This document shows positions 1 to 54,178 of a DNA stretch of 64,000 nucleotides, piece by piece. The translations under genes and the position numbers were made by a program. Below the pieces are notes generated by a model that had not been told where the DNA came from, did not search any database, and saw only the letters and a list, made by a program, of their open reading frames with translations. This DNA comes from Nageia nagi. Its lineage: Eukaryota > Plantae > Pinophyta. The stretch spans positions 3,286,001-3,350,000 of the forward strand of contig JBITNC010000002.1 in assembly GCA_050084985.1 (NCBI GenBank), read 5' to 3'. Within the stretch, counting starts at the first letter, position 1. Every line of letters begins with the position of its first letter.

Positions 1-3000
1 TGATAATCTTCACAGCATTTGCTTTACAGAACCATTCCAGAAAGAAATCAACTTTCAATGATATTCAATAATGTAAACAAAAGCATTCCTTTCTTGATTG
101 CAGTACTCTCAGTATGATATTTAAAATGAAAAAGAGATATGACAATATGCATCCATGATATGCAAAGAATCCCTTATGTAGCAAATCCTTATGCAATTCA
201 ATAGTATGCAGAAAATATCATACATACAATCATATGCCAAAAATCCCCTTCTAAATAGCTCGAATCGAGTATAAATACGCCACTAGAAGTGTTGCCCTAA
301 AGGCATCAAATCTGATATGGTGTGCACACATACAACACACATACTGATCCAAAATATGATTGTTCACACAAAATGATGCAAGTGGTATTTAAAGCTGACA
401 AAATATAAATGCCACAACTATAATACATTTATTTATCTCTAACCTATGCAAAAGAAAATCAAATATGCAATAAATGTTTGGATTCTGAACCGACAGGAGC
501 AAAAACCTCATCCCTGCACCGGTTAGAACCATTAATAAGTTTGACAGATTTGATTTGGTGGGAGCAAAACTTCATCCCTACACCAGTCAAATCAAGTAAA
601 TAAAGTCTGAGTACAACACCAACCACCATCAATATGCATTAATTAAAGAAAGATTATTGCAAACAAAATCTGCAAGTGGATCAGATCTAGGCCAAATCTG
701 ACCCGGTACCGGCGGAGTTCCACTCCTTGTTGGTGAGACCGTACGACTCAATGGTTTCTTCCAAGAACGCTATGGTCTTATGTACTCTGGAAACCATGCT
801 GCCGTTTTGCTAGAAATAGTCCCCAATCTATTTGGACGTAGCCTACATTTGGAATATCTAGATGACCATCTGCCTTTCATGGATGATAGGATGCCTTAAC
901 TTTAACAAATTGAAATCTTCGACATCTAGATGCTCTTGGATCAGGTTTTGGGCCTCTGCCAATACTGCTTTCTTGCGCACACTGTTATCCTCCCTTGAAA
1001 TCTGAGTTGGTATACATATCCTCTCATTTGCTCCTCTACTTTTCTCAAAGTGTTCTGACTTTCAGAACAACATTGCACTTCTCGAGTGCATGCTTCAGCC
1101 AGTCGTGCTGATACATAAACTCATGGCAGTAGACCAATTTTTCGGGTTTGTTAGCAGAGATTTGCTATAAATGGGTGACATTTGGGGAGATAACCATCCA
1201 ACTTCTCAAGGTTTGCCGTTATCTAGGACTTTAGTTCCTAGATTCCAACACCTTCCTCAAAGAGGCTATATATTTGAGAAGATAACTTCTCAATGGTCTC
1301 CATCATCTCCTTCAGTTGGTCCTTCATCAGCTCCCATCCTTCATAAAACGAGGCTTGTTTCTTCAGGTTGACAAGGGTAGTGCTAGTGGTCTAGAACTCC
1401 TTAATAATTTTCCTGCTAGCCGTGAGTTCCCTTTTTAGCCTCTTCACATCCTTCTTAGCTTCGTAGCGTTCCTGTTCCATAACAACGACATTTTGGGTCA
1501 CAATGTGCTTACGGGCTGTCAGTCCCAACTTGATGGGCACATTAAATTTCTCAATCATGTAGTCGTTGGGCCTCTGAGGATGTTTCTCCTTGGAGTAACA
1601 ATGATTGATGGAGATCTCTTTTCGAGTAGTAGAAACAAAAGTGTCAACAAATCTAACCTACTCACCATCGGAAAGGTCCTCTTCTTCATCCTCAGATCTC
1701 AAGTCCTGATCTATTTCTTCATCATGAGCCATACTCATGCCCAGGGCTCTTAGGCAAGCATTTAAGTCAAGATTCGGATGTTCGGTTGTTGGCTTAGGAG
1801 GGAGCCTCTGCACCAACACTCGTCCTTTGTTGATCTTCTTGACTTCTTTGGTAGGAGTGGTTGAACGAGGGCAATTTCCCTACCCTGGTGCTTGTCCTGC
1901 TTTCTCTTCTTTTGTTTTTCTGTCTCCTCTTCATCTTCTTCATCTCCGCCACTGCCACTAATAGATATGCCTTTCTTTCTTGGCTGAGGGGATCTTTAAT
2001 GGCTGGTCCTCTTCATAGAGGGCTTTTGGGAAGACAAGGGCGACCTCTTTTTGTGTTTGGCAGGAGAGGGTTTGGAAGCACCCACCTCTTTGGCACACTT
2101 CACTTCGACGATTTGGATTTCATCATCATAAGTCCAAACGTCTACAATCTGGTCATAATCATCATCTAGGAGAGTTTCAATCTTCATCTCATTAGGTGCA
2201 AAAGCACCTACAGCTACGTTGTCTTGTCCAAGGTACTCTTCATTAGCAACATCATTTGCATCATCATCATCATCATGTTCTTCTTCACCACGACTTTCCT
2301 CATCACTTTCTTGACTCTCTGTCTCTTCCTTGGAGTCTTATATTGTATAGTCGGGTTCTTCATCATTTTCTTCATCAGAAGAAGAAGTGGAATGTTCGGA
2401 AGAACTGGAACTTAGCTGCAGCAAGGGAACTTTATCTCCACATCTAGGAGGACAAGTGGGTCTAGAAGGGATTTCTTCAGTGGATGAATCATTGGCATAG
2501 GCTTCCTCCAGCATGCTCAAGGGGACAATGCGATAGCTAGCATCTCTCAGGTCAGCCATCACCACACTGTGCTTATTAGGTCCTGGGGTATCTTCTCTTG
2601 AAGCTCCTTGTCTTTTTCCAATGGGAAGTAAGGACTTTCTGTCCTGTGGAGGCACAACACTTGCAAAAGGAGGAGGGGATGTTTTGATCGTTAATGGGAC
2701 CTCTTTGGATCTTGCCTTGACAGTTCTGGGTCTCTGAGGTGTCCTTTCTACCTGGAGGGGAGCCTTATTCCTGCTCAAAAGACAATCTATCCTTGCTATC
2801 TCCTCCTCCTCATCCTCCACGTTTCAGTACTTCTCCACATTCCCTAAAGATTTATTCTAGTATGCAATAGGTTTCTGGAATGCGGTGTTGTAGAAATGGG
2901 CAATTACACCTGAGGGATCATAATTTCTAGCTGCCATCTCCTTGAAGAAGACGTATTGTTGTAGCTCCTTCTTCATACTGTTGGCTTCAACCCACATTTG

Positions 3001-3539
3001 GAAAACATAACTTGTGATTAAGATGGGCAACTTAATGGTTGCATCCTTCTTTCTCCATACTCGTTGTTTCAAAAATAATAACTGTCTAGCAAATTCCATG
3101 AGGATGGGTCTATCACTGGCATATTTGGGCAGGAGCAAGGTTGTTCTTCGGAGCCATAAACCTTGATGTAAGTATGATTAGTATAATGCAGATAGAAGTC
3201 CGCATGTAAGCTAATGGCTTGAATATTCTCCTTTGATGTCCTTATAAATGGAGTACTCTCATCAATCGTTCCTCTCATAGAAATGCTTGAACTTATTGTG
3301 GTACAACCACTTCAGGTAGATTTGCCACACTGGAGTGCCTTTTTGACCCAAATATCTTTCATTTGCAAGCTCCCTTGATCTGAGCTTGCCATGCAACAAC
3401 AGGTACACAAGATAGGAGTTCATATAAAACCTCTTGGAAGAGCTGAAGTAGGCTAGCTGGTGGCGCAAGGTGTCATTGATAACCTTACTCCATCTGATGG
3501 CCCTCTTGGATTTGATCACTGCAATTAATTTGATGAACT

Positions 3540-6500
3540 TGTTGGGGGATTTTTCTTTCCTACCTTGCTAATGGGCAAATGAGCTTGCAAGGCTTGTGGG
3601 AAGACACCAACATCTAGGTGGTAGGGCGTGATCCCTACCCACTATGAGGACTGGTTACCTCAAAGGTCTCATGATGGGATGTGCGAGAGGTTGCTCAGGA
3701 GATTGGCTAGGATGTTTAAAGCTGTTTCCAACTCAAATATCATTTGTTAGTTAACCAAGGACTTGAAGGGTCCTTATCTCTAGCAAATAGTTGTTTCTCA
3801 AAAGAAAAGGAAAAATAGGTTGTGAAAGTTGTGCTAAAAAAAATGAAAAATAAGGAAAAATGTAGATTAGACCATGGTGTATGAATCGGGCACATGTGTA
3901 TATGGCTCCATCGACATGTACATAGGATTGGGATCTGCTTCTCTTGGGCTTGATTCAGGTTCCACGCACTCTACATCCACTCTACTAGCCAACAACACGA
4001 ATGGACTAGTAAAAGGAGCTTAAAGCAATGGCAAGGGTGGTAAAAGGTGGTTCATGGGTAGATCTTCGAGTGTGAAGTAAAGTTCCTAAGCTAAGCGTCA
4101 TAAGAGAGAGCCATCACAAAATGCACGTGTCTTGTTATGCAAACTATGAACTTATCACAAGTCAAGTTTTACTCAAATCACTTAGGGAGATATTCAAGTA
4201 CTCTCTCATCCACCTCAACAAGGTTTATGAGATGATCCAAGCAACTCAAATGAAACAAGATAGCAATAACATTCATCCACTCAAAGTGTATAAAAAACAT
4301 TCATAGTCCCATCCAAATGAAAGCATTCACCATTCAATTACTTGAAATCACACCACATTCACAAATGGAGCAAACTTGTTTAATTGGCAATAGAATTAAG
4401 TCTCTCACCAGTGCAAAAATGTCTAATCCCCTACAATTTAACCCAAATAGGCTATAAATAGTTTTTGTGGCAACCCAAAGTGTTGTCCTAACCCTAATGC
4501 AAATTACGAAAAAAATAGAAGTGGTCCAATTATAAAGTGCCACATGGCATTACAAGATTTCATCCAAACTTGTGGCAGCAAATCCTCATCCTTCACAAGT
4601 TTGGGAATTAAATAATAATATAATAAAGTATTTTAGCAAAAATAAATGTCATTTGCTTGGAAATAAAAATAAATTGGAAAATTGTGACTAAGATGATGGT
4701 GGGCCCAAGCCTGCAACACGTTCCTCGAAATCCTCATCTAGGAATTTCGTAGCATAAGAAAAGTTCCATCTTGTCCATCCATGTGTTTGTCCTCAAGATG
4801 TGCGCCCGGTTGAAATTGCCTGCCTGGTTGCTGGAAATTGCAGTGGGGGTTTTGGAGCCTTTCTAGGCCTAGCGCATGCCCATAAAAGACAAGATTTTGT
4901 CTTTTTGGAGCATGCGCCAGCCCTGGGGATGCATGCTCTCTGCTCGTTGGTGTTCTTGGCTGCCTTGCTCGTCCGATTGAACCTTGAAGCTCACCTTGGA
5001 ACCCGAACACGTCTATTTTTTGCTCTTTCTAGTGCCCAGATGTATCAATTTGATCATTGTGCTCAACTTGGACACTCCCAAAGCTTGGCACATGATTCAA
5101 AAAGACAGATTTTGTCTTTTGAAACCATGCACTCAATCTTCCAGCTCTCCTAGTTTGAGCTCATTGTCCAGAAAGAGAAGATTTTGTCTTTTTGTGGCAT
5201 GTGTTGGTTTGCAAATGCCCAAATTTGCTCAATTTTGGGTTCCTGCTTGTCAGACTTAGCCAAATTTTCGTGTTTTTATCATCCTAAAGGCTCTATGAGT
5301 TTGGCGCATGCCTCAAAAAGTCAAGATATTATCTTTTGAAACCATGCACCAGCCCCTCTAGTCATGTTGGAGTTGAGTTTGAGATTCGAAGTTCCATGCC
5401 TCAGTCAAATTTGCCTTGCAAACCAATTGGGCATGCCCTTGCCTTAGGAGCATGCTATAGAAAGTCAAGATTTTGTCTTTTGAAACGGTGCTCCCAACTC
5501 TCTTGTCATGCTAGCTTGAGCGCATGTTCCAGAAAGACAAGATTTTGTTTTTTTGAGGCATGCGTTGGGTTGCTCTTGCCTGTTTTGTCCTGTCTCGGGG
5601 CCTTAGCAAGTGGGACTTGGTCAATTTTTCACATTTTCCTAGAACTGGTGTCTTGTTGAGTTAGGAGCATGTCAAAAAGACAAGATTTTGCCTTTTGAAA
5701 CGATGCTCCCAACTCTCCTAAGCTAGGAGCATGCTACAAAAAGACAAAATTTTGTCTTTTGAAATGGTGCTCCCAACTCCTTGGGTCATGCTTGCGTTAG
5801 ATGCTGGTTTGAGGAATCCGTGCCTTAGCCAAATTTCCTCATGAGATCGGACTAGATGCCTCTTTGAGTCTGGTGCACGGTTCAAAAAGCCAAGATTTTG
5901 TCTTTTGAAATCATGTGCCAACCCCTCTAGTCCTATTGGAGCTGAGTTTGAGGTTCAAGGTTCCGTGCCTTAGTCAAATTTCACCTTTTTGATGAACTAG
6001 ATGCCTCTTAGTTCTTGGCGCATGCTCCCAAAAGACAAGATTTTTTCTTTTTGAGGCATGCGTCATCCTCCTATGTGCTTGAAATCCACTTTTTCATCTT
6101 CGAACTCAACCTATGTGGCCTTCTAGCTTGATCGCTTGCTCCCAAAAGACAAGATTTTGTCTTTTTAAGGCATGCGCCAACGTTGCTGTGCCTTGTTCTT
6201 GTCTTTTCCTTGCTCCGTTTCTATCCAGACTGCTCCTTGATTCAAGCGCATGATCCAGAAAGACAAGATTTTGTCTTTTTGAGGCATGTGCCAAGCCTCA
6301 AAGTGGCCAAGTTTGGCTTAACACTATTCCGAATTGACCTGAACTTCCCTAGCTCACCTAAGACCGACTTTTGGCTTTCTAGACTTAAGTCATATTTTTT
6401 TTTTTGGGAAATTTCAGATTTTGGCCCAACATGAATAAGATGAGGTGATTGATGAGACTAGGTTTAGGACAACTTGACATAATATCTAGGTCTTCCGAAA

Positions 6501-6603
6501 CACTTGAATTGTAGGAGACAAAAACATGACCCTTTGTGAAGATGAGTTAGTTAGGGTCCCAAAAATCTTAGGATTTTGGGGCATGTTGTGTTTAGTCACA
6601 ACA
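3540..6603 (-). mobile_element. Giant LTR-like unit, copy A' (ORF almost entirely deleted), nested in the ORF of copy A
   Basis: Termini TGTTGGGGGATTTTTCTTTCC (3540) and TGTTGTGTTTAGTCACAACA (6603). Host ORF resumes on both sides. Imperfect TSD (t)gaact/tgact. 3540-4790 is homologous to 37192-38440. Confidence 0.85.
4872..6292. repeat. Array of ~12 ~46-bp imperfect palindromes GCGCATG-N-AAAAGACAAGATTTTGTCTTTT-N-CATGCGC
   Basis: Copies start near 4872, 5088, 5158, 5303, 5448, 5519, 5665, 5726, 5872, 6017, 6131 and 6245, with spacers of ~15-170 bp. Confidence 0.92.
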
Positions 6604-7569
6604 TGACTCCTTCCTATATTTAGAGTCATTCTCCTGATCTGTGACTTTGGACAACAAAGTGATCAACTTAGTGATTGTAAGAAGGAACTCCTTCCTACGA
6701 GCACTAATCAATCTTTGACCTTGGATACCTTGGTAGTCTTCATACAACCATCTTTTGATGTAAATCTCCAGGCCGGGTAGTAGAATCATGAAATTTCTTT
6801 GAATTGGTTAGTGTATAATCATCTTCGTATTTTCTCCAACCAAAGGCTGCTTCAATTCCATTCGGAGAGAAGTCCATGATTACATTCGCTTCGGTGTCCA
6901 AGAGAACTCTTTTATCATATTTGCATCGCTTGGCTACCTCATAGCACAACTCAGGAAATGGAACAACAAAAGGCATAATAGTGGCATTGAACAATCCACA
7001 AGAATGGATTAGTTCATATGATAAGTCCTTGCTGATGGAGGCAGTGGAGGCTATAGTCTGGATGGGGTCAACATTTCCCTAGTTCGTGTCTCCAACAAAT
7101 ACGTATTACCCCTTGAATTTGGTTTCAGGAAGCTCTGGTTTTTCTCTCTCTTGAAATTGTACCCGATTCTCCCTCAAGGACCTTTCCATTTGGTCCCTTG
7201 TGACCGTCTTTCAAAAAGTTGTCCCTGGACTTTTCTGACCTTGGACGGGGGAGGCCTCACCTTAGAAGTCATCATAGAATTTTGAAAAATGTGCAGAAAC
7301 TTGCAGAAAAGAAACTGGAAAACTGGTTGGGAATACCCCAAAAATGACTAAATATCAAACTCGATGTGCTTCAAAGAATGCAGCAACAATGGCTAGACAT
7401 GCAGGTATGGGTTACAAAATGTCCTGCAGAAATGAACTAGGACTGCCCTCTTTTATAGGAGATGCATGGAGGGTTTGTGCATGGCATGATGCATGTTTGC
7501 CACTTGTCTTCTTGACTTCTCAACTTCCGGCTTCTTCCACACTTAGAAAATTTTGGCTCTCAGATCCTA

Positions 7570-9000
7570 GGGCGTACCAATTTGGATGTGTGCTTTTTCA
7601 CTATCTGGAAAGCATGCGAATGGGTTCTTGATGGCCAAAACACATCACATAGTCAATTCTAGGCCAACAATGTTTTATTTGGAAGGTTCAATTCATCATT
7701 TCACATTAGGGCGCATGGATTTGGATGTGTGCTAAAGCATGTGCTACAAAGCATGCGCCTCATACCTTCATGTAACAAAAAAGTGGACCCTAAGATCCAG
7801 CTTGTCCCTTAAAAATGATTGATTGGTTGCATAGGCACATCCTCAATCCCTTATTCCTCCTTGGTGCACCAATTTTGATGAGTCCTTAAGCATGTTCCAG
7901 AAATAGTGCGATTGGGGGGGCTTAATGCAAAATGAAATGAAGTGGTAAAATGACAAAAGGGGTGACTTAATATATAGTCTTCAAACTTGCCACATGTCAT
8001 CCTCTGGTTGGTTGAAGAAAAGGTTAAATGATGGAGCCAAAATTATGGGCGCATTGTTTTGAGGACATGCAAAAGCATGTACCAAAATGCATGCGCTAGC
8101 CACATTGTGTTCTCCAAAAGGACTTAGTCACTTTTCATCGTACTTGAAAGCTTTTATATCTTGGTTGCACCTTTTGAAAGGGGTGCAAAAGCATGTGCCA
8201 GAAAACATGCGCCTAGCTCTTCTCCACTTGGATTTTATACTTAAACAAATTTGACCTTGGGCCAGGATGTTTGGAGACGGGCACACCAATTTAGGTGAGT
8301 TCCTAAGCACACACCAAAAATCATGCACACGGCGTGTGGCACACCTTCCAATGCAAAGGATTAGAAAATTAATGAAAATGACTTAAAATTAATGATCCAG
8401 AACAGGGTGCACGTTTTAAGGGACATGATTTCGTGACTTGGCTTTGCATCGGGCTCCAAATTCAACCAAACAATTTGAATACTGGGGTGAACCTTCCATT
8501 TATAGGCTTGCTAAGGGTGGACAAGTGTCCTGATGTGATAGGTGCAAACAAAGGTCCAATGCATGTGAACACACTTGTCAAGCTTGGGTCCAACACTTAG
8601 CCGAATTTTATACCTCAAAGTTGGGCGCACCGATTTGGGGACATGCAAAAGCATGTACCTTAAAACGTGCGCTTGGCCTTCCTTTTTTCGCACAACTTAA
8701 AAATTTTCTAAGTATAGAGACTTCTCAATGATCTTTGTCGCATTGTTTTGGGGACTTGCAAAAAGCATGTCCCTCAAAACATGTGCTTAGGCACAAAATG
8801 CAAATTTTCCTTCAAAATGACTAGAATGATCCTCAAAATGGAATGTAATGGAGGGGATGCAATCTTTTATAGTATGATAGATATGAAAAATGCAGTATTA
8901 AGACTGAAAATGCAAGACTAACTTCGAAATATGCAGCATAAAGGAAGGCGCACGTTTCAGGGTACATGCAAAAGCATGTCCCTCAAAACATGCGCATAGG
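7570..9000. repeat. Array of ~50-bp palindromes in copy A (core ACATGC-AAAA-GCATGT, outer GGCGCA/TGCGCC arms)
   Basis: For example 8946-8998 aggcgcacgtttcagggtacatgcaaaagcatgtccctcaaaacatgcgcat. Similar units near 7570, 7710, 7862, 8048, 8165, 8280, 8625 and 8737. Confidence 0.85.
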
Positions 9001-9176
9001 CACAATGACACTTTTTCGACTTGTTTTCATCATGACAGTGCAGACCTTGTTATGTTTCCTCTTTCTAATTTAAGATGCATGCATTTCCTTGAAAATTTTC
9101 TTCCATGTCTTTATGCTCGAGTTCTTGAGAGTCCTCAAAAGTGCAAATTTTTTGGGGGTGTTGTGCAGGCACAACA

Positions 9177-19219: not shown

Positions 19220-20459
19220 GTTTCTTTTTGTCCTCTTTGCAAACTCTTCCTCGTGCTTTCTTTTATCAAAGATTTATTGAATTAGCAAAGGAATTATGTT
19301 TTTAACCAGTGCATTACTCTGCACAAAAGCAAACAAAAGAATAATGCATATATATATCCTGCCAGAGATCAGGTTAGTGAAAAGAGTTCAAGATTTATTT
19401 AATCTTGTTAATGAAAAATTGAAATAAAAGACTTGCTTTATTACATTCCTTAATTAAGTATAAATACAAGAGATGTACTCACCTCAAGTATACAAATAGA
19501 TAAAGGCATTATACTCACCTCATGTACCTAAAAATAACATATATCTATAATTAATCACTATCCTAGAATTAACCACTAACCTATGATTAACCACCATGTA
19601 CTTGTTGTGCCTGCACAACACCCCCCAAATTTTTTGCATTTTCTAGGATCCTCATACAATTGAAAAGCATGACATGAAAATTTCTAAGTCAAATGCATGA
19701 GTCTCAAGCAAGAATGAGGAGAGAAGTGGCAAAAATTGCATATTTTGATGAAAACAAGTCCAAAACCCATTATTTCTCCTAGGCACATGTTTTTTAGTTA
19801 GTGCTTTTGCACTCACCAAAAATGGTGCGCCTAGCCTTATTTTGCACTTACCATGACCAACTCTGCATTTTTGTGCTTAAAATCATGCATCTTTCATGTC
19901 TGCTTCACTCCCCATCATTAAAAACATGGCATTCTTCTCATTCCATATCATTCTATGAACATTCTGGTCATTTTTGAGAAGTTTTAGCACTTAGCATTTT
20001 TGGACTCTGTGTAATGAAAAAGCACTCTTAAAATTGTGCGCCTAAGGGAATGGAACATTTTAGTACTTAGCATTTTTGGTAAAATAGCTTCAACCCATGT
20101 TTTATGGGGAGTGCAAAAGCACTCACACAAAATGGTGTGCCTACCTTTCATGAGCATAAAATTTGACTAAGTGTTGAAAATTTGGAGCATTCATTGTGGG
20201 GTAAACAAGTGTCTCACCATGCATTGGGCCTTCATTTGCATCTATCAACATGTGACACCTGTACATTTGGAGACGCAAGCTATAAAAGGGGGTGCTGTGC
20301 CACCCCCCAAAATTTTTTCATTTTGAGGACCCTCGAAATAAAAGAACAATGCATGGAAGTAACGTTTGTCTAAGGGAATGTATATATTTTGGTCTAGATT
20401 TAGGAAACATGTTAAACCTGTACATTCATGGTCAAGTCAAGTCAGAAGTATGCATTTTT

Positions 20460-21855
20460 ACTTAGTCACATGTTTTGAGGGATGTGCCTTTGCACACCTC
20501 CCAAACGGTGCAACCAGCCTCATGCTGCATTTTCATACTCATTACTTGCATTTTCGGTTTCAAAATTGCACTTTTAGGGTCCCTCATACTGTAGAAGTTC
20601 GTTTCTCCCTCATTGCATTTCATGTTTAAGGTCATTTTGGCCGGAATTCAAGGCAAAATGTTTTCAATCATAGGCATGTTTTTGAATGAATGCTTTTGCA
20701 CCCACCCAAAATGGTGCGACCAGGTTGGAGCCTTATACTTGGCATTTTTTTTGGCAAAACTTGTCGCATGTTTTCAAGTGAGTGCTTTTGCACCCATCCA
20801 AATCCATGCGACCAAGGAGGAAGAGATTTGTACTTAGCTATTTCGGAACCTACAAGGCCTGTCACATGCTTTCAAGTGAGTGCTTTTGCATCCATCCAAA
20901 TCCATGTGACCAGGAGAAAAGGGGGACTTAGCCATTTTGAGGCAATCAAGGCTAGTCGTATCCATTCAAGTGAGTGCTTTTGCACCCAACTCAAACCGTG
21001 CGACTATATTCATGAGGTGAAAATTGGCTAAGTGTGGGGTCCAGATTGTTGCCAAGTGGAAACACATGCATTCGATCCCCTCTTGCACCTATCATATGAT
21101 GACACCTGACCTACCCGGAAGGCTTGAAAAGGAAAGTCAGCCTTAGTCATTCTATTTGCAAAATTGTTTGGAGCATTGCGTGGAGCCAAGGGAGAAAAAG
21201 CACGTCCTCCAAAACATGTGACCTATGTTAGACCTGCATTTTTTAAGTCATTTTTGGAATTTCTAGTCTCAGGAGGTGTGCCAGAACCTAGGCGCAAGGA
21301 TTAAGGTGCATGTTTTTGCACCCTTTAAAAACGGTGCGACTAGGAATTGAGCTTCATTGTTGACTTGAAATTTGGCTAAGTATCCAAGACCCTAGTCACA
21401 TGCTTTTGCACCCCTTTAAAACCATGCGCCGCTATTTTTGCTCCACCATTTGATCCTTAGCTTGACCAACCCAAAGGTGACACATGGCAGCATAGAAGGT
21501 TATAAATATCACGCTACCCCTTAGTCATTCTTACCATTACATCTAAGATTTTTCACCCTTCCCCCAGTCGCACCATTTCTAGCGCATGCTTTTGCACTCA
21601 TCTAAAACAATGCGCTAGGGAGAAATAAGGAGTCTAGAGGGCCGTTGTGCATTCAAATAGCTTGTTTTTGGCTAAAGCATTCAATAAAGCCCCAAGGTCA
21701 TGGTTCATGCTTTTTGACATGCTTTTGCACTCATCCAGATTCATGCGCCCAAGTGTGAGGTGAAGAATTATACTATGAAATTTGACTAAGTGACCCAAGG
21801 CCCAGTCGCATGTTTTTCAAGCAGTGCTCAAGCACTCATCCAAAACTGTGCGCCC
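20460..21855. repeat. Array of ~50-bp palindromes in B2 (core GAGTGC-TTTT-GCAC(T/C)C, outer GTCGCATG/CATGCGAC arms)
   Basis: For example 20763-20812 gtcgcatgttttcaagtgagtgcttttgcacccatccaaatccatgcgac. About a dozen related units. Confidence 0.88.
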
Positions 21856-21861
21856 AGAATT

Positions 21862-24830
21862 GCAAGGTCAAAGGTTGATCAACGCTAGAAGAGAGGAGTT
21901 CCTGCCTATTGTGGCCAAGCTGATCACTCTCTTATCTAAGGGTACTGGTTAGGAGAATGATACTAAGTATAGGAGGGAGTTCATGGGCTTCATGCAGTTA
22001 TCAGCTTGAGGAGAGCTATTCGATAGGCTGGGGTAATTAGTGATGCCCTACACCACCAGTTAGCTTATTTTGGCTCGAAGAGATTTTATATGAACCCTAT
22101 CTTTTGTACCTGTTACTGCATGGCAAGGTTAGATCCATAGAGCTATTCGATGAAAGATATCTAGGACAAAAGAGCACCCCCGTGTGGCAAGCTTATCCAA
22201 AGTGGTGGTACCAGAACAAGTTCCAGCATTTTTGTTAGAGAAATGACTACTGGGAGGATGATATCTACAAAGATATCAAAGGGGAGTCCATGGTTAAGAG
22301 GATTTTTGATGCAGCCGTCCAAGCTATCAGCATACATGCAAATTTCTTCCTGCAGAACGCTGACCATACATTCATCAGAGTCTATGGCTCAGAGGAACAA
22401 CCCCTACTCTTGCCAAGATATGCTGGTGATAGGCTCGTACTGATTGAGTTTGCTAGGCAACTCTTGTTCCTGAAAGAGAGTTTGGAAGAAGAAGAACGCG
22501 ACCATTAACTTGCCTATTTCAATAGCAAGATATGTGTTTCAAACGTGGGTTGAATCAGCTAGTATGAAGGAGCTGTAGCAGTATGCCTTTTCCAAGTAGG
22601 CAACTGCAAGAAACTATGATCCTAGGGGCATAATTGCACATTTCTATAGCAATGCATTCCACAAACCTATTGCGTTTTTGCATCAGTCTTTTGGGAGTGT
22701 GGAGAAGTACCGAAATGTGCAGGATGAGGAGATTGCAAAGATAGATGCTCTTCTGAGCAATAAAAAGGCTCCCCTTCAGGAAGAAAAACCACCTTAGAGA
22801 CCTCGAACGACTATGTCTAGATCTAAGGAGGTCCCTCTCAGGATCAGGTCGTCTCCTTCTCTTGCTCATACTGCATCTCTACCAGTCAAAATGTCTTTGC
22901 TTCCTGTTGGAAAGAGGCAAGAGGCTATGAGGGAATACATTTTGGACCCTAGCAAGCGTAGTGTAGTAATGGTTGATCTTAAGGAGGTTGGCTATCGCGC
23001 TATGCCCTTGGATGTGCTGGATAATGTAGTAGGTGAGGCTTGTGCTAGTGATTCACCCACATAAGCGGTTCCTTTTACGCTCACCCATTCTCTTGGATGT
23101 AGAGAGAAAGTCCCTTCTTTGCAACTAAGCTCTAGTTCCAGTTCTGAACGTTGCACTTCCTCTTCCGATAAAGAGATTGATGAAGAGCTTGACCATACAG
23201 TAGAAGACTTCAGAGAAGAATCGAAAAACTGTGGTGGAAGAGAAGAAGAAGAGGAATATGATGATGACGATGCTTCCATTGTTCTTGAGCAAGAAGATGT
23301 AGCCATAGGTGCCTCTGCACCTGATGAGACGGAGATTGAAACTCTCCCAGATGACAATGAGATAGTGGATGTTGGAACATATGATGATAACGTACAGATC
23401 GTTGGAGAAAAGTGTGCTACAGAGGTGGGTGCCTCCAAACCCTCTCTTGCCGAGAATAGGAAGAACTCCCCTTCCTCTTCGCACAAATTCTCCACAAAGA
23501 GGACGAGCCATGAGAGATCTCCTTAGCCACGCAAAGGTATATCTATAGGCGGTGATGGGGAAGATGAAGAGGATGAAGGAGAAACTGAGGGTCAAAAGAA
23601 GAAGAGAAGGCAAGAAGAGCACCAAGGCAAGGAGATTACCATAATTCAGACCACTCTAGCGAAAGAGATCAAGAAGATCAACAAAGGATGATTGTTGGTT
23701 CCGAGATTTCCCCCCCAGCCAACAATTGAGCATCCAAATCTTAACCAAGATGCTTGCCTTAGAGCCCTCAGCATGAGTACAAACTCATGATGAAGATATA
23801 GACCAGGATTTGCACTTCGAAGATGAGGAAGTGGAGCTTTCGAATGGTTAGAAGATTCGAAGGGTTGACACGTTTGTCTCCACCTTCCAAAAGGAACTCT
23901 CCATCAGCCATTGCTATTCAAAGGAGAAACATCCTCAGAGAGCTAAAGACTGTGTCATCGAGACATTCAAGATGCCCATGAAGCTAGGATTGACAACTCG
24001 TAAACATATAGTTACTCAAGATGCTGTAGTCATGGAGCAAGAGGGGTATGAAGCCAAGAAGGAGGTGAAGAGGTTGAAAAAGGAACTCACGGCTAGCAGG
24101 ACAATCATCAAGGAGTTCCAGAAGGTCAGTACCACCCACTTAGATCTGTAGAAGCAAACCTCCTTCCATGAGGATGGGAATTGATGAAGGAGTAGCTGAA
24201 GAAGGAAATGATGGAGGCTATTGAGAGATTGTCTTCTCGAATTTACAAGCTCCTTGCTGAAGGTGTGGAAATCAGGGACCTTAAGTCGCAGATCTCAACA
24301 CACCTAAGCACGTTGAATAGCCATCTTCCCAACGTCTCCTATATGCAGCATATTTACGTTGACAATCCTGAGAAGTTAGTCTTCTACAAGTTCACATACC
24401 ATCATGATTGGTTGAACCACGCACTTGAAAAGTGCAATGCGGTCCTGAAGATCAGAATCCCCTTGAGAAAGGAGGTTGAGCAACAAATGTGTGAATATGC
24501 CTATCAGCTCAAGTTCCAAGGGGAGGACAATAGTGTGAGAAAGGAGGCGGTATTCGCAGAGGCTCAGAACCTGATATAGGAGCATCTTGACATCGATGAC
24601 CTCAGTTTGCTAAAGGTAGGGCATCCTATCATCCATGACAGATGGATGGTCATCTGGAGGCACCAGATGCAGGCTACATCGAAGAAGATAAAGGACTACG
24701 TTTGACATAGTGGCAACACCGTTGGCATGATTTTCAGGGGTGTACGGAATACTGTGGCGTTCTTGGAGGAGACCATTGAGTTGTATGGTCACACCAATTA
24801 GGAGTGGAACTCCGCTAGTATCAGATTAGA
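21862..24830 (+). pseudogene. Degenerate accessory ORF of B2 (N-terminus deleted)
   Basis: HTFIRVYGSEEQPLLLPRYAGDRLVLIEFARQL, acidic linker QLSSSSSSE..., C-terminal helical part at 24208-24579. Collinear with the ORF of copy A. Confidence 0.78.
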
Positions 24831-27800
24831 TTTGGCCTAGGTCTTATCCACCTGCAGATTCTGTTTGCGGTATCTTTGCTTTTGTTTAGATGCATATTTG
24901 ATGGTGGTTGTTATGTCAGACTCTATTTCACTCGATTTGATTGGTGTAGGGATGAGTTTTTGCTGCCACCACATCGAATTTGTTAGATTCACTTATGACT
25001 CTGACCGGTGCAGGGATGAGGTTTTCCTCCCTCCGGTTCAGATGTCAGACTTTTTCATTGCATATCTGATTTACTTTTGAGTAGCTTAGAGGTAGATTAA
25101 ATGCATATAAGTTGTGGCATTTATATTTTGTCAGATTTTTAAGTGCCACTTGCATCGATTCATGTTAGCAATCTGATTTTGTATTGGTATGTGTGTTGCA
25201 TGTGTGCACACCATATCAGATTTGATGCCTTTAGGGAAACACTTTTAGTGGCCTATTTATACCCCATCCTGACCATTTAGAAGGGGATTTTGCATTCGGG
25301 ACTTTTGCACTTGGAATATTACATGATATTACGCATTTTGGCATATGTGAGACTCTGCACTTAATAGAAATATTGCATATTGAGGATCTTGCATTTTGGG
25401 ATGCTGGCTACAAACTTTCATGTGTAAGAATTTCTTAGTTGTTGCATCTGTTATAACTGAGGTTTACTGTATTTCATATGAATGCAAGGGTTTTTCTACA
25501 TATGTTTGGTTTGTTGCATCTTTAAATTTTTACATTCTATTGCATAGAGGTTCGTTGCATAAGAGGTTCGTTGCATGTTCATCATTGAATATCATTATAA
25601 ATGTATTTCTTTTGAGGAATGAGATTATAAAGTTAATATTGTGAAGGATATCATTTGTGGGATCATGCCTATATGAATAACTTTCCCCTTGGAGTTGTAT
25701 ATTGAATATTCATTGAAGTGGTTTGAGTTTATCTTTGCATGGTTTGCACGTAAGTGAATGTATTTTGAGGCTCATAGCTTGTCTTTATACCATTTGGTTA
25801 GGTTCTTGTGCTCACACCCTCACCTCATGTATGCCTTCCCACTGAGTCATCCACCAAGACCCTACAACTTCTTGCTCTCGTCTGGTAGTGATTTGAGTGC
25901 ATATTACTTGCCCAGCTTGATAGTGAGTCCATTGACCTTAATGAATTTGAAGATGACCTGCCGAGACAGTGCATCACTAGTGATACCTTCATAAGTTCAT
26001 GCTTCCTTGTATTCCTTTGCATTTATCCCTATGTTTGTCCCTAAATTTGTAATATTTCTTCGCTTTCATTGACATTTGTAGTCTTTCCTTATTATGGAAA
26101 AGAATTCCGGCATTGTATTTCCCTTGTATACGGTTAACAACATGCATGTCTAACTATTGTGCCTTCAAGACCATATTCCATGTGAGCGCTTGGGGTAACC
26201 AGTCCTTTCAGGTGGAAACAAGTAACGTTGTTTACTCTAAGTCTTGTGCATGTTTTGGACTAGGAAAGAAAAACATTCCAACAGGGGGTCATTCATTTTA
26301 TGTGCATTTTGGTCAAATAACTCCATTGTGTGTTATGTTTTGCATGTATTAAGGAAAGACACTACTTGAAATTGGTAGGCCTCACTTCATAAGATCATTT
26401 TGAACCATTTTTTTGGAAATTCACTTTACTGGCACCATTTAAGGCACCATGAAAGCTAGGCGCATGTTTATCAAGGGGTGAAAAAGCACCCATCTAAATT
26501 GGTGCGCTAGCCTCTTGGATGTCCAGATCCGGGACCATGGATTTTGACTAAGTGTGAAATCTTGCATCTTGGACCAGGCGCATGTTTTCTAAGGAGTGCT
26601 AAAGCACTCATCTATTTTGGTGTGCCTAATCTAAGATGTAAAATCCATGTTAAATTTTTTTAAGTGCTCCTTAATCCCAGGTGCAAGGATTTGGGGGAGT
26701 GCAAAAGCACTCATTGAAAATGGTGCACCCATAACCAAAGGGTCATTTTTGTGAAAGTTTGAAATTGGTTAAGTCTTGAAACACAAAGAGCCCAGGTGCA
26801 TGGATCCAAAGGGTTGAAAAAGGACTCGCCCAAAAAGTTGCACCCCTCAATTATTGCACATACATTGGACCAAGTTTTTGACTATTCCCAAGGTGACATG
26901 TGGTATAACCCAAAATTATAAATATTAGATCACCCCTTGCATTTCACTACAATTCATTTTGCTTAAGACTTCCAAGTAGCACTATTTCCAGACATTGAAA
27001 AGGACTACCACAAAATCGTGCATCCAGGAGGAATAAGGATTTTTGAGATCATTTGACATCATTTTAAGCCTTTTTTCTTGAAAGATGAGGGTAAGCTTGA
27101 TCAAGCAAAGCATTTTCTGAAAATTACTTCATTTTTTCTTGCATGCCTACCCAACTAACCTAGGCGTATGATTTCTACATAGTTCAAAAGGACTCATCCT
27201 AAGCGGTGCACCAAGACCTAGAGTGGGAAAATTTGACTAAGTATTACAATTTCAAGTTCATTTCATTCCCTTTTCCTTCATTCATTATAAATGATAAAAA
27301 TTTAAGGTGTAAGGTTTTTGTGTAGTGAAAAGGGATCCATCCAAAATGGTGTGCCCTAGCATGGAGTAATGATCAAACCATCCCAAATGAGAAATTTTGT
27401 TCAAAGAGGGTAAAAATTGATTGAAGTGATGTGTTCCTCTAGCAAGTACTTAGGTGCATTATTTTCTCAATGTGAAAAAGCACCCTTCTAGATTGGTGCG
27501 GTATAGGAAAACTGACCTAAAAATTGACTAAATGGTGGATAGCCAGGAGTGAAGATATCAAGTTGACAAGTGGCACCTATGCATTGTGCCAAGCATATAC
27601 GCTCCATGCATTCTCCATAAAAGTGGTTTCAATCCACTTTTTGTAGGACGTTTCAACTATCCCAACCTAGATGTCTGGTCAACTCCCACTGCCACAAGGA
27701 CACTTCCAGAACTGTGCGTCTAGCCCAACTTGGCCCTTTTGAGACATTTTGATCAAATTTCAGACCTGTTCTCACTCATTTGCTAGGAGGATTTATCAGA

Positions 27801-37191: not shown

Positions 37192-39870
37192 TGTTGGGGG
37201 CTTTTTCTTTCCTACCTTACTAATAGGCGACTGAGTTTGCAAGGCTTGTAGAAAGACACCAACACCTAAGTGATAGGGCATGACCCCTACCCTCTATGAG
37301 GACTGATTACCTCAAAGGTTTCATGATGGATGTGCAAGAGGTTGCTCAGGTGACTGGCCGAGATGTTTAAAGCTATCTCCAACTCAAATACTATTTGTTA
37401 ACCAAGGACTCAAAGGGTCCTTATCTCCTGAAAGCGTTTGTTTCTCAAAGAAAAAAATAAAAGGGTAGGTTGCGAAAGCCACACAAAAAAAATGAAAAAT
37501 AAAAGAAAAGATTGAATAGACAATGATATGTGAATTCAACATGAAAGCTCAATGGTCTCACCGACTAGTACAGGATTCAAGAATCAACTCTCATGGCTTG
37601 TCATGGGTTCCATGCACTTTGGATCTAACTTGCTAGTTAACAACACGAATGACCTAACAAGAGGAGCTTGAAGCTAAGGTGATGGAGATAGATGAGGAAA
37701 CGTGGGTAGACCCTGGACAAGGGAGTGAAGTTCCTATGTTAAGCGACATATGGGAGCCATCTCAAGGTGTACAAGTCTATAATGCAAACTATGAATTATA
37801 ATACAACCATACACTTCTTGCAATGCTTATGAAAATGTTCAAACACTCTTTTGTCCACCTTAAATAAGATTTATAAAATGCACCAAGTATTCAAGACAAC
37901 ATAAGGTAATAACATACATTTACATTCATAGTTCCAAATGAGAGCATTCACTATTCAATTACTTGGAATATATCACATTCACTATTCAATTACTTGGAAT
38001 ATATCACATTCACAAATTGAGAGAACTTGCAAGCTTGAAAGTATTAGGTAAGTTGTCCAATTTGCAAAAATCTCTAATCCCCTACAAGTGGGCCCAAATA
38101 GGCTATAAATAGTTTTTTCGGCAACCCTAAATGTTGCCTTAACCCTAATTTCAAAATGAAAGAAAATACAAATGGACAAACCACAAATTGCCACATGGCA
38201 TTACAAAATGTCTTCCAAGCTTGTGGGAGCAAATCCTCATCCATCACAAGCTTGGGAATTAAATAATCAATATAATAAAAATATTTTATCAAAATAAGTG
38301 TCTATTCTTGAAAACAAAACAACAAATTATGTAAATTGTGACTAAGATGAATGTGTGCCCAAAGCCTCAACGCATCCCTCGAAATCCTCATCCAACAATT
38401 TGGCAATGAATTCCAATCCATGCAGCATATCTGATAGCTTTGGCCCATTCCCAACAACACAATGTCCAACTTATTCAATCACCCTCTGCATGTCGTTCTT
38501 CCAGGCATAAGCTTTCAACAAGTGTCTCAGGTGACTTCCAGTCTGATAAGTGTTGACGTTATTGGTCATGATCAAGCTATGGAGGAAGTGTCTAACTTCT
38601 ACCACTACTAGGTCCTTATCCCTAATGGTGGCATCATTATCTATGAATTTGACCTGAAAATCCATCTGTTCAAGGCTGGTGTTAGCCTTGTCGTTGAGTG
38701 CTTCGACATGCTTCTGCACCTCCTTGAAACGACTAGCTATCTAATTGACAACACCCAAGTAGAACCAATAATTCTTGCAAAACTTCACATTCTCAACTGT
38801 CCGATCCTATCTCATCTCAAATTTTATTATCATTGGCTTTCGGGAGTCTAGAACACTGTGAAGGTTGGCTCTCTCCACCACAATGTCCTTTAACTTTTGT
38901 TCCTCAAGTGTGACCCTCTGTAATGCACCAATGAATTGCTGAATTACCTAGTTCTTTCGAGGGTCTATCTTCTTCTTCATCGAGCTCCTTAGAGGTTTCT
39001 GTCATCCATGATTGTGAAGTCCTATTTAGTTGGGCTCTTCTCTGTATTGTCTTTGAGGCTGGTCCCTTACCCTTCTTTGTGGATGGTTCTGAAGTAGCGG
39101 GATTTTGGACTACCTTCACTATCTCAAAAGATCTGCCTTCTTGCTATGTACTTAGGATGTTGTCATGTTGTGTTGAATTCACTTACTGTTCACCTTCTGA
39201 ATCTCCTACTTCTCCTTCGTCATGATTGTCATCGGGTTCATACCTGGGACTAAAGGATGAGGACCCAGATGGCGGAACAATGGGTGATGGTCATGCAACT
39301 TCTCTAGGTGGTCTGGATGGTGGGGATGGATCCTTCTTTCTGTTCCTGACACACCTCACCATCTTGTCAGTGGCCACACGTTCTAGCTCTCTCACGTCAT
39401 GCTCATCAATGGTGTTCTGGACTTGGACTACCTATTCCACTAGATTGTTGCCATGTATTGATGCATATTGTTCAACTGGTCCTTTAATTGTGGGTGGAAA
39501 CTGAGTGACCCTGGAGGTGGAGTCTTGTGGTCTTCTTCCCTTCTGCTGTGATAATCTTTTGTCGATGGTGGCTTCAACAAGCTGTTGTTGATCATGGGCA
39601 TCTTGTGCATTTTGTCATGAATCTTCCTCATTTCTACCTCATTGCTCACATTCCGGAAAGTTTATTCTTCTCTAAGTGGTTTATGTTCATATACTTTCGT
39701 CCTTTCCTTCATGTAAAATTGGTTAATCCTATGGTCGTGATCATAATGATTGGCGACATGCATCTTCTTGAAGTTAAATCTCTCCAGCTCATCCTTCATG
39801 GTGTCAACGTCTGCCCAAGTCTTGCACTGATATTCACCCACTCTGATCGGCATCTTGTGTTCTCCTGTTT
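37192..39870 (-). mobile_element. Giant LTR-like unit, copy C' (5'-truncated; same subfamily as A', retains the C-terminal half of the ORF)
   Basis: TGTTGGGGGCTTTTTCTTTCCTACC at 37192. 37192-38440 is collinear with 3540-4790. ORF remnants at 38471-38719, 38904-39119 and 39440-39853 (PIRVGEYQC..NHYDHD). Right boundary approximate. Confidence 0.8.
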
Positions 39871-41204
39871 TGTGAGATTGCTTTATTGTTTTGTTTTTAA
39901 GTTTCTTCTACAATTACTAGAACCAAATTTGCTAAAATTTTATTGAAAAATAATAGATCCTAACATCCATTAACTTCAGGAAGAGTAGATCTCCTAAAGA
40001 AGAAACCAAAAAGTTCAACAAAGTTCTTCCCCTTATATTGGTCCAGCTATCATTGAGAATGCTGCACACCTTCTTTCTTCAAATCTTTTTCTATTTCTCT
40101 ATAGCATTCCTAATGTTTGTGTTAGCCTTCTCAAGCAAAGGTCCTCTCAACTAATGGAAAGATGGTGCATTGAACCTAAAACCAAAAACTGCAATTGTGT
40201 TAACCATGTAGCTCCAATATGATGAGTTCTCTATATTAAAGGGAATTTCATAGTAATACCATGAATTACCAATTGCCTTTTTGGCTTCTTTAAATTTATC
40301 ATTGTTCCATGATGATTCAAGTGTGGTTTGGCCACTACGAGGGGTGAAGAAATCACACCTCACTGCACAACTAATGGCTGTAGAAATTGAAATGCTAAGT
40401 GGTTGCCTAAGCTTGTTGGTTTGTTCTGCATTGGCATTGGTATTGCCTTCTTCGTGGGTGGGAGGAAACCTTGGGGTTGGAGGTGGAGATGGGATAGATG
40501 GAGGTTTGGCCATTTGTCTTTATGTCCTTTTCTTTTCCTTCCTTTCTTTTTTGTTGGAAGTTGTTCAAGTAGGCATTAATTTGCCTTCGCATATGAACAT
40601 CCATCTAACATTTTGTCAAGTGATTCTCGCCAAATGAAACTTCATCTTTTATGGGCCTCCACTAACAACTTCCCCATAATAATTGGCAATAAATATTTTG
40701 GCCTGTTTTTCCAGTTTCTTTGCAATTAGCCCAAACAGGGTCCCTCTTTTCCCCTTCTAAACTCATACTTGCAGCTACAAAAAAAGCAATCCACAATGGG
40801 CAAGCAATGAGCATTAGTAGAAAACTTATCCACTAGAAAACAATAGACAAACTAGAAAGAAAACAATGGAAAAATAAATGGAGAAATGCCTAACAAAACT
40901 CAAAAACCAGTGGAAAAATGTTTAGGGACTTACTTTAGTGTGTTGAAATCTTGGTGAAAAATTAAAGAAATGATGAAAAATGTTGTTTTTCCCCTTTAGC
41001 TCACCTCCTCTTAGCTCCTGGCTGAATGCAAAAGTGAACAATGAGTAGTTTTTGTGTTTTTAAGTTGATTGCTATTCGTTTGGGATTGACAACGATTTTT
41101 TTGTATGATATTGTATTAATCCCGATTTTCGAGATTGATTAATCACCAATTAATCCTGCAAAATAGCCACATCAAAAAAATAAAAACTCATCTGATCTGG
41201 TCTA

Positions 41205-45693: not shown

Positions 45694-47456
45694 GTAACAA
45701 CCGTTCAACATTGATCACACTGCAATACAATACCAAACACCTGTGAGCTTCATCACTGCAGTATAATACACAGAGGTCTTCAATATTTTGAATAAATATA
45801 TTAGGTTATGCTTCTAATTTCTTCTCCCTTTTACTTTGAAGTTTTCAGTTAATTACAGCTGCATTTTAAATTGTTTCTCTTCTTCAATATCTTGTTTATT
45901 TACCTAAATTCAAATAGATGGAAATTCAAAGGTGTAAGAAAACAGATACTATGGTGATAAAGTATAAATAAAGATGGTATTCCTGAAAACCATGTTTGAA
46001 TTTCATAATCTCTAAAAAAATAGATGCAGATGGCCATTGATGAACCATTCTTTGTTCAAAACTTTGATCATTATGGATTGAGTTCTTTTGGATATGTTGT
46101 TTGTGAAGGTTTAAGAAAATGATATTGTTTTTAAAAGATAAATCTCCATAAGTGTTATCAGATATTTGCTAGTCTTGGGATGGAGAGAGCTTGTTTTCTG
46201 TTGGGATGCTTTTCTTTCCCGAGCAAGACACTCTGAATATCGCACGCGGAACTTAGGAGATCCCAAGCAACATAGTTGGGAATGCGTTACCAATTCCCCT
46301 GTTTGAAAAGGATTGGGTAACTCCAAGGCTCTTGTTGAAATGCTTACTCGACGACCTAACGTTATGACGTTCAAGGTGTGCTCGCTGAGCTCGTTTATGG
46401 TCTAGGGATAGATAAATAAAAAGAAAGTGCGGTATCCCTCTTTGGAATCAACCTCAATGGAATGGAATGAGAGGTGTGTAGCCTGTTAACCAATGGTGTT
46501 TTATTCTTTGATGTATAGAGTTTGTTCAAAACCTTTGTGTGTGGACTTAACGATTGTATTTGGGTATGAAAGCATAAAGATAATACTGTAAAAAGTGGAG
46601 GACAACACCTTGGAGAAAGAAAGGATACTTGGTTGGATATGAGTTCGAGGTTCACTGACGGGAAAGTGTCTAAGAGTTAATCTCTTCCGAATCGGTTAAG
46701 GGCTCTTCATCCAATTCATCCAACCTTGCAAGCAAACGACTTAGCGTTCGAATTGCTTCGAACAGGAGTGGGAAGGAATGCCAATTGTCGGTTCTCTACG
46801 AATAGGACCGATTCAATTAAATGGAAATGGAAGGTCTCAAAGTGAAAGGATCATGGTTTTGGATGAAGGACCTAGCAAGATGTCATGGAAGTAGAAATTG
46901 ACATAGAATACCCAATCAACTTGCGTGTTAAGGACCAAGCAACAAACATAGGTAAGCTACAAACACTTGTTAAAGTTTTTTAGAGATAACTTTCCTAAAG
47001 CTTGAGAGCTTTCAAAGGAATAAAACGAAAGTACACAAGCCAACTATGAGTGCCTTCAAAGAATCAATCTATAACACCAATATGAAAAGTATCAAACTCA
47101 AGTCTTTGCATTAACCACTTTGTACTAAATTTTGAAAAAGGAGGTGCCAAAATTTACAATAAGCTCTCAATTCTCAAAATATCTCTCTTCAAGCTTGAAG
47201 TGTTTGCTTCAGAATGAAGTCCTTACAAAAGTGAGACCCTTGGTCTCTTACTTATCGAGTTTTGGAAACCCTAAAGTGACTTTTGAAACCCTAGAAATGA
47301 GTTTTAAAACCCTAACCCTAAGTGTAACACTAACAATTATTTACAAGCTAATTGAAAATGCTAATTAAGATTACAATTGGACTTAGTGGAAATCCACTAA
47401 GTTGGCCAAATATTTGGCTTACATATCAAAAACTTGCAAAAATAAATCCCTTTCTA

Positions 47457-50400: not shown

Positions 50401-50716
50401 CTTTTTGATGTCACAATGCTTTCCTAGCTCGTAACACAGCTCAGGGAAGGTGGTGGTGAATGGCACCATAGAAGCTGTTACTAGTAAGGAGGTTTTCAAA
50501 GTGTCCTTCACTAGTGAAGATGGATCCAATGCTTGTATTTTCATTAAAGTTTTTATTGGATCGAAGGAGTTACAATTTGTCCCCGATCTCGCTCGGCTGG
50601 TCAATGATTCTTGCGGCAGGCATCACTGGCTCTGTTGTGTGTTCGAGTGTGATGAGACTGTCCATTGTGAGCCTTTTCTGCTTCCTGTCTTTGATGTTCT
50701 GAGCGACTAACACCAT
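47457..50716 (-). pseudogene. Accessory ORF of copy D, ~1085 codons with a few stops/frameshifts; unknown function
   Basis: ORF-track pieces 50125-50604, 49330-49890, 48406-49053 and 47457-48458 are collinear and share motifs with copies A/B (FPELCYE, MDFSEEGIENVFAW, YASDRTILMEF, HYDPDGVI). No gag, PR, RT, RH or IN motif seen. Confidence 0.8.
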
Positions 50717-51949
50717 TGTGTTCTGTGTCAGAAAACAACAAGAGCTAGAAGAGTCTTGGGAAGCTTATGACACTTTCTAGGCAAGCAAAGAGGGGTTTTT
50801 GAAAAATTTAGATTTTTTGGCGTTTTTCACTCTAAGTGTGCCATCATCGAAAAGTGTTGTAATTTAGGGATGACACAAAGGTAACTAGCTCAAAGGGGGA
50901 TGCCTTGGCAAAAAATTAGGATGTTTGGAGAATTTTCAACTTTTTTCTCAAAAAAGCTGACTTTTTTAATAGGAAAAAGTGGTGAAATTGGCAAACGGTG
51001 CTGGAATCAAGTTTCAACACCTTGGATGGGAAATGAGTGGAGAAGGTGTTTTAAACTTTGAAATGGCTAAAAGGGACTTCAAAAACAATTTTTGGAGTTT
51101 TTGGAATTTTTTGTCAAGAAATGAGGATTTTGAGCACTTAGATCTTGGATCATATGTTATTTTTTTTGTTGAAATTAGAAGTTGATCACATGGATAAAGG
51201 GTATTCAAAAAAGTGATCAAACTTGAGATCTGGAAAAATAAATTATCAAGTGTTTGAGTGTTGGGAAAATGGGGTTTTGGTGAAAAAATCCTCAAAACTT
51301 GAAAAAAAGAAGTTCATGTGAATGCAGGATGCTTGGATTTCGAATTTTAAAGGAGTTTGGGTGAATAGAAATGGTGCTAAGTGTTCAAAAATATCCTTCA
51401 AGACTGAACGTTGACTTTCTTTCTCACTTGGCTCCCAAATTCTGAAAACTTTGGGCAGCATAAGGGTGCAAAAATGAGAGTGGTGAAAAATGGAGGGGGT
51501 ATGGCTGTATTTATAGGCTCAAGGGGTCAAAAGGTGCCACATGTCAACACCTCATCAACCCTAGAGCTCCAAACTTGCATTTTGGACCTTTCTTCCTCCT
51601 TGCCAACGTTGGGAAACATGGAAAAAAGGCCAAACCTACGCCTAAGTGTGGAAGGAGCAGATTTGGTGCAATGTGGGGGGTCTTGGAAGCAATAATGATG
51701 GCCTTTGGATGCTCTTCAACCTCCATGTTTCAAATTTGGATTTCAAATTTTGAGATTTTTGTGGAAAAATCCAAATTTTTTGAGTTTTCTCAGCCTTTGA
51801 ATCCCTTTTGAATGCAAAAAGGTGGTTTTTGGGAGTTTGTATGGGCCAAAAGGCACAAATGATAGGTCAAAATGGTGGTAGAATCACACCACCTATCTCA
51901 TAGAGGCAAAAAATTGCAATTTTGGACAATTTTAGGGGTCAAGGAGGCC

Positions 51950-53330: not shown

Positions 53331-54178
53331 AACTTGCTTTCCTCTTTCATTTCGGGCTATATTGCACATTCCTAACTTTTCCTATCTTTTACGGGCCCAA
53401 ACGATGCATCTTTGGCCATTTCCGACATTTTCGGGCTCTAAATATGCATTTTGACCATTTCCGGACCTTTTCAAGGTCAAAGGGTGAAAAAATGATCATT
53501 TTCGACATTTCCGTCATTTTGAGCTTAAAGTCTACATTTCTGGTCTTTTCGGGCTCTTCCTAGCACTTTGAGCTCAGTCTTGCAATTTTGGTCATTTTCA
53601 GGCTCAAACCGTGCAAAAATGCACATTTTTACTATACTGACCACTTCCGAGCTCAAAATTGACCAAAACGCACTTTTCCGTGCTACTGACCATTTTCTGG
53701 CTCTTCGGGCTCAAAATTTACAAAAATGCACTTTTTGGTTGTAGAAGCCTTTTCCGGGCTCAATTTGTACAAAATGCGCATTTTCTTCATCTTAACTGTA
53801 TCCACTGCTCCCGGGCTCAAACCTGATAAAAAATGCACCTTTTGTCGCCTTGGCACCTTTGTTGCTCAAACTTTGCCAAAATGACGTCTTTTCTATCCTG
53901 GTGGCCATTCTTCGAAATTCCACTATCTGGTTGCTGTCGTGATCCACAACTCCATCCTGTGAGATGGTACTTGACCGGGCCTTGACTTGGCCGTTGGGTG
54001 AGCCGAACTCTATTCATGACTCTAGGGCATGCTCGTCTGCTACTTTGATCATCTAGCCATTCTGGGTCTCCATACTAACCGTAAGTTGATCATGCCCAGG
54101 CAATGTTGCTCATTGCCGTTTGCAAAAAATTAGGTCCCCAAAATGCTACATCTTGGGGTGTGTTGTGCGGTCACAACA

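Follow-up and report, generated by a model that had tools for sequence, protein, structure and literature searches.

A 64,000-nucleotide stretch of DNA from the conifer Nageia nagi (contig JBITNC010000002.1), referred to below as the window, contains an array of 12 imperfect 46-bp palindromes (4872..6291, minus strand), which lies near one end of a mobile unit of ~3 kb. We put at roughly 0.5 the probability that this array acts as a DNA binding platform for the protein encoded directly behind it in longer members of the same family. The palindromes are a dense family-specific motif array with changing copy number, located in a non-coding part of the unit, and the mirror symmetry of the tolerated changes, the tolerance of mismatches, the fixed distances, the position upstream of a TATA box and the family-specific inner stems all fit a platform for a dimeric or multimeric reader. 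A metagenome scan for relatives gave six loci (L001-L006), two of them the same insertion. The unit has the following parts:

3540..6603, minus strand: array-bearing unit of 3,064 bp without an open reading frame (ORF), with ends TGTTG...CAACA, nested in the ORF of a sister element
6584..6603, minus strand: 5' terminus with a small terminal hairpin, a motif that recurs at 9176, 19603 and 54178 in sister families
4750..4758, minus strand: deletion junction that lacks the long form's TATA box and ORF, a homology break relative to L005
3540..4750, minus strand: 3' part common to the ORF-bearing members, 74% identical to 37192-38401 and 12% divergent from L006
3535..3539, plus strand (left copy), and 6604-6608 (right copy): 5-bp target duplication with two mismatches

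The ends of long terminal repeat (LTR) type, the 5-bp target duplication and the nesting in the sister ORF had been overlooked in an earlier reading of this DNA from its letters alone (the sequence-only reading).

The palindrome units start at 4872, 5088, 5159, 5304, 5448, 5520, 5663, 5727, 5873, 6018, 6132 and 6246, with steps of 216, 71, 145, 144, 72, 143, 64, 146, 145, 114 and 114. The 22-bp core, with at most 3 mismatches, had 11 matches in the window, every one in 4884-6279 (shuffle mean 0.01), and the twelfth unit carries a 1-nucleotide deletion, so that the ~12 copies claimed by the sequence-only reading are borne out, as are its spacers of ~15-170 bp (18-170 bp as measured). Its nested inverted repeat also holds, except that the presumed unpaired N5 linkers turned out to be degenerate arms of one 46-bp palindrome, with 33-69% Watson-Crick pairing per position; the inner half-site is AAAAGWCAW and the outer one GCGCATG. 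The claimed paralogy of spacers was confirmed by the 83% identity of blocks 5291-5412 and 5860-5981 in a self-comparison of the window and by same-strand matches to another spacer for 9 of the 11 internal spacers (spacers 2-10; best pair, z 28), and the longer spacer matches outside the array fall within arrays of the same family. Among the contig joints of the sequencing runs in the array, some skip and some repeat palindrome units. A simple tandem repeat was rejected, as Tandem Repeats Finder run on the window did not report the array. A coding role was likewise rejected, since the commonest long step, 145, is not divisible by 3 and the overlapping ORFs had no Pfam match at cut-off, and so was a known RNA family, since the four matches of an Rfam scan were all far below the gathering score.

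In its conserved palindromic repeat alternating with variable spacers the array resembles one of clustered regularly interspaced short palindromic repeats (CRISPR), a likeness that the sequence-only reading had pointed out. It differs in its eukaryotic host, in its interrelated spacers, which fall into three length classes, and in that no Cas family was seen among the 25 window ORFs scanned of 49 listed. The palindrome pattern was not found in viral and prokaryote genome contigs, and an alpha-amylase 3 exon in the window, whose closest named match is from Araucaria (70%), with a Ginkgo-style gene model also matched (54%), indicates conifer DNA; a CRISPR array was therefore rejected.

The window self-comparison aligned 240-3523 and 6602-6723 to contiguous sequence near 21990, and the sister copy at 21985-21993 represents the empty site, without 3540-6603 and 5 further bases. 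In long members the order is terminus, array, TATA box, long ORF and 3' part. L005 has the same 5' end and array as the unit, followed by a TATA box and a long ORF; the unit is homologous to it as far as ~4758, ~45 bp ahead of its TATA box, and to the 3' part from ~4750 on. L006 has the identical junction, contigs span it in 3 of 4 sequencing runs, and the loss of ORF and TATA box marks an amplified 3-kb subfamily. The ORF deletion that had been ascribed to this copy is thus real, but common to a subfamily and extending to the TATA box, and ORF-less copies of an ORF-bearing family did keep the array, as had been claimed. Complete copies of 2,972 bp (L004/L006) and 3,066 bp (L003, 9191-12256) each have their own 5-bp duplication. 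Two more variants, the complete L003 copy and L002, gave no match to the ORF profile; a short hydrophilic open stretch replaces the long ORF in L003 9191-12256 and L002 3100-3750. The 22-bp inner stem is perfectly palindromic in the L003 copies. A conserved TATA-like motif at ~4452 in the 3' part (~4010 in L002, ~11325 in L003) is canonical in form when read from the strand opposite the ORF and could be the main LTR promoter or an antisense promoter.

The length of the spacers is a stronger conservation signal than the sequence of the units. In six arrays, counted without the complete L003 copy (spacings 93, 241 and 290), 32 of 34 spacings were 72, 114 or 145 (+-2) or sums of these, as were 26 of the 28 below 200 bp. 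In the 114 class, 11 of 12 spacers measure exactly 68 nucleotides despite only 43% identity, and a rough simulation of held spacer length, which assumes a star tree, gave P values of 2e-4 to 5e-3 for five lineages. Helical phasing was rejected: the classes 72, 114 and 145 correspond to ~7, 11 and 14 turns, but six classes gave p 0.31.

Related elements, including sister families with arrays of their own, were found elsewhere in the window:

37192..39910, minus strand: 3' half of an ORF-bearing member of the unit's own family, with a broken ORF end and the common 3' part
240..9176, minus strand: sister unit that hosts the array-bearing unit, with eight 48-bp palindromes in 7400-9176, a TATA box and an ORF from ~7400 split by the insert; its 3' end lies outside the window
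19603..26283, plus strand: sister unit of 6.7 kb with 11 palindromes and an ORF with an internal deletion, without a matching target duplication
46199..54178, minus strand: ORF-bearing sister unit of 7,980 bp, with a 5-bp target duplication with one mismatch and without terminal direct repeats

The sister units that start at 9176, 19603 and 54178 have the terminal motif in common and encode the same protein family. The 48-bp palindromes of the host unit, of the 19603 unit and of a 26.3-kb copy (8, 11 and 7, respectively) have the same outer arm and another inner stem, and their profile matched neither control DNA nor the array at 4872..6291. The 46199-54178 unit has its own array at 51909-53253, with a period of ~365 bp and other nested inverted repeats, upstream of the TATA box. 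At two loci (window 3540-6603 and L001 592-938) a unit of the array's own family lies inside a unit of a sister family, and an insertion preference is possible.

Between copies, the inner stem diverges by 11-16% and the spacers by 30-31%, with p 3e-4 for L006 and 1e-5 for L005 and no significance for the two L003 copies, in a comparison whose array blocks are possibly not orthologous. Among 46 units, drawn from the window and from five loci without two window units that have gaps and one weak match, conservation reaches 90% or more in 17 of 46 columns. Several results qualify the difference between stem and spacers: the non-array part of the unit diverges by 12%, near the level of the inner stem; the divergence excess of the spacers consists of transitions, transversions alone being equal; and in the youngest duplicate stem and spacer have both diverged by 14%. 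Taken together, they suggest that the spacers evolve fast rather than the units slowly, and the earlier statement that the repeat is far better conserved than its spacers holds only in part. The excess of transitions and the even decay of the youngest duplicate would fit an array that is a neutral, decaying higher-order repeat, kept palindromic by arm-to-arm conversion or template switching and with an AT-rich stem that mutates less. The GC content of the stem (24%, vs 46% in the spacers), the deamination products at the arm CpGs and the paralogy of the spacers agree with such a repeat. However, spacer length has been kept at ~57% sequence difference, vs 0.07-0.16 indels per substitution in the adjoining 3' part, and sister families with unrelated inner stems keep the same architecture, so that we consider neutral decay quite unlikely.

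The array could also act as RNA, as a row of stem-loops in a retrotransposon transcript used for packaging or dimerisation or as a source of small RNAs. Over the 46 units 83.4% of the pairing cells are paired, the covariation score (0.205) exceeded 500 of 500 shuffles and the array windows fold at z -0.7 to -7. Nevertheless, pairs with two-sided change numbered 8, which was reached by 382 of 500 shuffles, and the clearest change comes from one contig: pair 18/29 is A-U in 23, U-A in 8 and unpaired in 15 of the 46 units, and all eight U-A come from two copies in L003. The covariation that the sequence-only reading had set as a test was found in the score and not in the number of pairs with two-sided change. 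Pair 12/35 is mismatched in 27 of 46 units, folding is weaker for the gene-sense strand than for the other one (-17.1 vs -19.4 kcal/mol over 46 related units), no Rfam family came near its gathering score, and RNA pairing does not need fixed spacer lengths. The stem-loop option of the earlier reading is weak on these grounds, and an RNA function is the least probable of the explanations weighed here.

The nearest candidate reader of the palindromes is the element's own ORF protein. In long members this ORF is under purifying selection, and a domain of it has a weak predicted fold match to VANC21 (PDB 9lnk); VANC proteins have a DNA-binding domain of DUF1985/PMD-like type. Leads of PMD type from the Atlas reached only 0.82-0.83; no match was obtained at cut-off in a Pfam scan (including PMD, Transposase_28 and Athila ORF-1), by Foldseek with both protein models or in PDB sequence searches, and shared-word protein searches, which are weak evidence, found no long homologue. 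The first ~80 residues of a Cryptomeria mannosyltransferase gene model (P0075) belong to this ORF family, and are an exonised fragment or a gene-model error. VANC21 is described, in the part of PMC5735166 available, as a protein that removes methylation and whose binding targets are dense motif arrays, specific to each family and variable in their number of units.

A cis-acting multimeric platform, as proposed by the sequence-only reading, fits both the fixed spacing and the VANC21-like lead. A dimer or multimer would read the symmetric half-sites, inner and outer, and several palindromes at set distances would permit cooperative binding. The bound protein would keep the LTR promoter region open against silencing, ORF-less copies would borrow the predicted binding protein in trans, and the copy at 3540..6603 would decay neutrally after insertion. 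Alternatively, host transcription factors may use the array as an ordinary LTR enhancer, as has been proposed for the palindromes of Sireviruses, without involvement of the ORF protein. Its location in an LTR-like unit ahead of a TATA box, its quick turnover and reshuffling between copies, as in maize Sireviruses, and the outer arm common to families with different ORFs are compatible with this, whereas inner stems that are family-specific while the geometry is kept, and an adjoining ORF whose predicted fold weakly matches that of a protein binding DNA in a sequence-specific way, make a host-factor enhancer unlikely, although less so than the other alternatives.

More tentatively than the platform itself, and with doubt, we suggest that giant conifer LTRs of 7-8 kb may each hold a gene of PMD/VANC fold, preceded by a family-specific array of long palindromes at fixed spacing that the protein would bind, and so constitute a VANC-like anti-silencing system. 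If true, every solo LTR would be a self-contained anti-silencing cassette, parasitised in trans by ORF-less LTRs, and the system would provide a mechanism by which retrotransposons stay active over long times in the giga-genomes of conifers; sequence-specific anti-silencing is known from Mutator-like DNA transposons. The function of the PMD-like extra ORFs of plant Gypsy elements is presented as an open question in the available parts of PMC6317226 and PMC4408406, and here such an ORF occurs together with a candidate target whose sequence differs by family, which opens its function to a binding assay. Even if the anti-silencing reading fails, an ORF-bearing LTR-like unit of 7-8 kb alters the annotation of such repeats.

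The unit is likely a solo LTR of a conifer Gypsy retrotransposon, with its putative direction taken from the ORF, because TG...CA ends with a short inverted repeat and 5-bp duplications, found on the unit and its relatives, are an LTR signature; the duplications have one mismatch each in L003, L004 and 46199-54178. Such duplications are given for 93.4% of surveyed plant elements in the part of PMC6317226 available. Against a solo LTR, a primer-binding site (PBS) was found at 0 of 7 3' ends and a polypurine tract (PPT) at 0 of 10 5' ends of the units examined, for which P is 0.02-0.09 at solo:intact ratios between 2.8 (a Cupressus preprint, seen in part) and 5.5 (PMC9364684, likewise). A purine-rich flank in L001 was rejected as a PPT, being a nested insertion 346 bp into a sister unit. 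Neither the window nor L001-L006 contained a pol linked to the unit, and scans of viral and genome contigs found no two-LTR parent; the 32 candidate loci were matches by chance, none of which aligned to the window.

Instead of a solo LTR, the element of 3-8 kb may be a mobile unit complete in itself, with a single gene, which the integrase of a retrotransposon moves in trans; the array would then be a cis site for this movement or for the unit's own protein, which is compatible with the binding model. All 4 complete units with both flanks matched sit alone between 5-bp duplications, and 8 kb exceeds the ~5 kb to which non-chromovirus LTRs extend in the same part of PMC6317226. In all 4 runs read depth drops at 3540, where the flanks are heterogeneous among 93 contigs (63, 12, 11 and 7 per run; agreement 0.37-0.48), a weak test, as a joint between LTR and PBS that many copies share is reduced to few records in contigs from short reads. 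With P 0.23-0.45 for the missing PBS and PPT at ratios of 10-20, which are plausible for very long LTRs, and without transposase, reverse transcriptase or integrase in the unit, a stand-alone unit is improbable, marginally more so than neutral decay.

Mutator-like elements have a transposase and a long target duplication (9 bp), whereas the long unit has one ORF only, without a transposase match, and a 5-bp duplication. The Arabidopsis VANDAL/VANC system, itself Mutator-like, nevertheless resembles the unit in that the gene of an accessory protein adjoins dense motif arrays, which are family-specific and have units gained and lost (PMC5735166, in part), and in the weak VANC21 fold match. It differs from the unit, which has LTR-type ends, in its 9-bp motifs of one orientation (same source) as opposed to 46-bp palindromes at fixed spacing; VANC is also termed dicot-specific in the available part of PMC13547354, and the present element is from a conifer, with binding only predicted. 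Sireviruses form the SIRE lineage of Ty1/Copia and have a hotspot of siRNAs on their palindromes. Their LTRs (PMC4728375) also have several hairpin-capable palindromes in their upstream part, which vary among copies and families, but these are of 17 bp as opposed to 46-48 bp; quantised spacing and an ORF inside the unit distinguish ours, and its lineage leads point to Gypsy accessory domains rather than Copia. Athila/Tat (OTA) Gypsy elements share an extra ORF with PMD-like leads, the 5-bp duplication, very long LTRs and family-specific arrays, and a PMD extra ORF is reported in gymnosperm Tat lineage III (PMC6317226, PMC4408406 and PMC11963269, each as far as available). In these sources the extra ORFs and the arrays belong to the internal region, whereas our unit has both of them enclosed by its TG and CA ends, and no reverse transcriptase was found with it to place its lineage. 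The array is a variant of known LTR repeat arrays, set apart by its fixed spacing, by an ORF within the unit and by the lead to VANC. Titles and abstract openings, mostly outside subscription journals, RepBase and supplements, described no ORF inside conifer LTRs and no VANC-like system of a retrotransposon; elements of this kind may be documented in the supplements to PMC6317226 and PMC4408406.

A gene for a chloroplast alpha-amylase 3 has exons at 12075-12437, 17678-18598, 18783-19220, 29344-29598 and 45562-45693, and three members of the array-bearing element group are located in its introns (12075-45693). An unrelated LTR pair (56073-57632 and 61015-62251, 91-96% identical) flanks ~3.4 kb whose ORFs had no Pfam match; related pieces are at 15296-16244, 30127-31370 and 41624-43557 and in L005 (8369-12546). 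The repeat at 15.3-16.2 kb is flanked by weak reverse-transcriptase fragments (14577-14903 and 16229-16564), which are probably one long interspersed nuclear element split by insertion.
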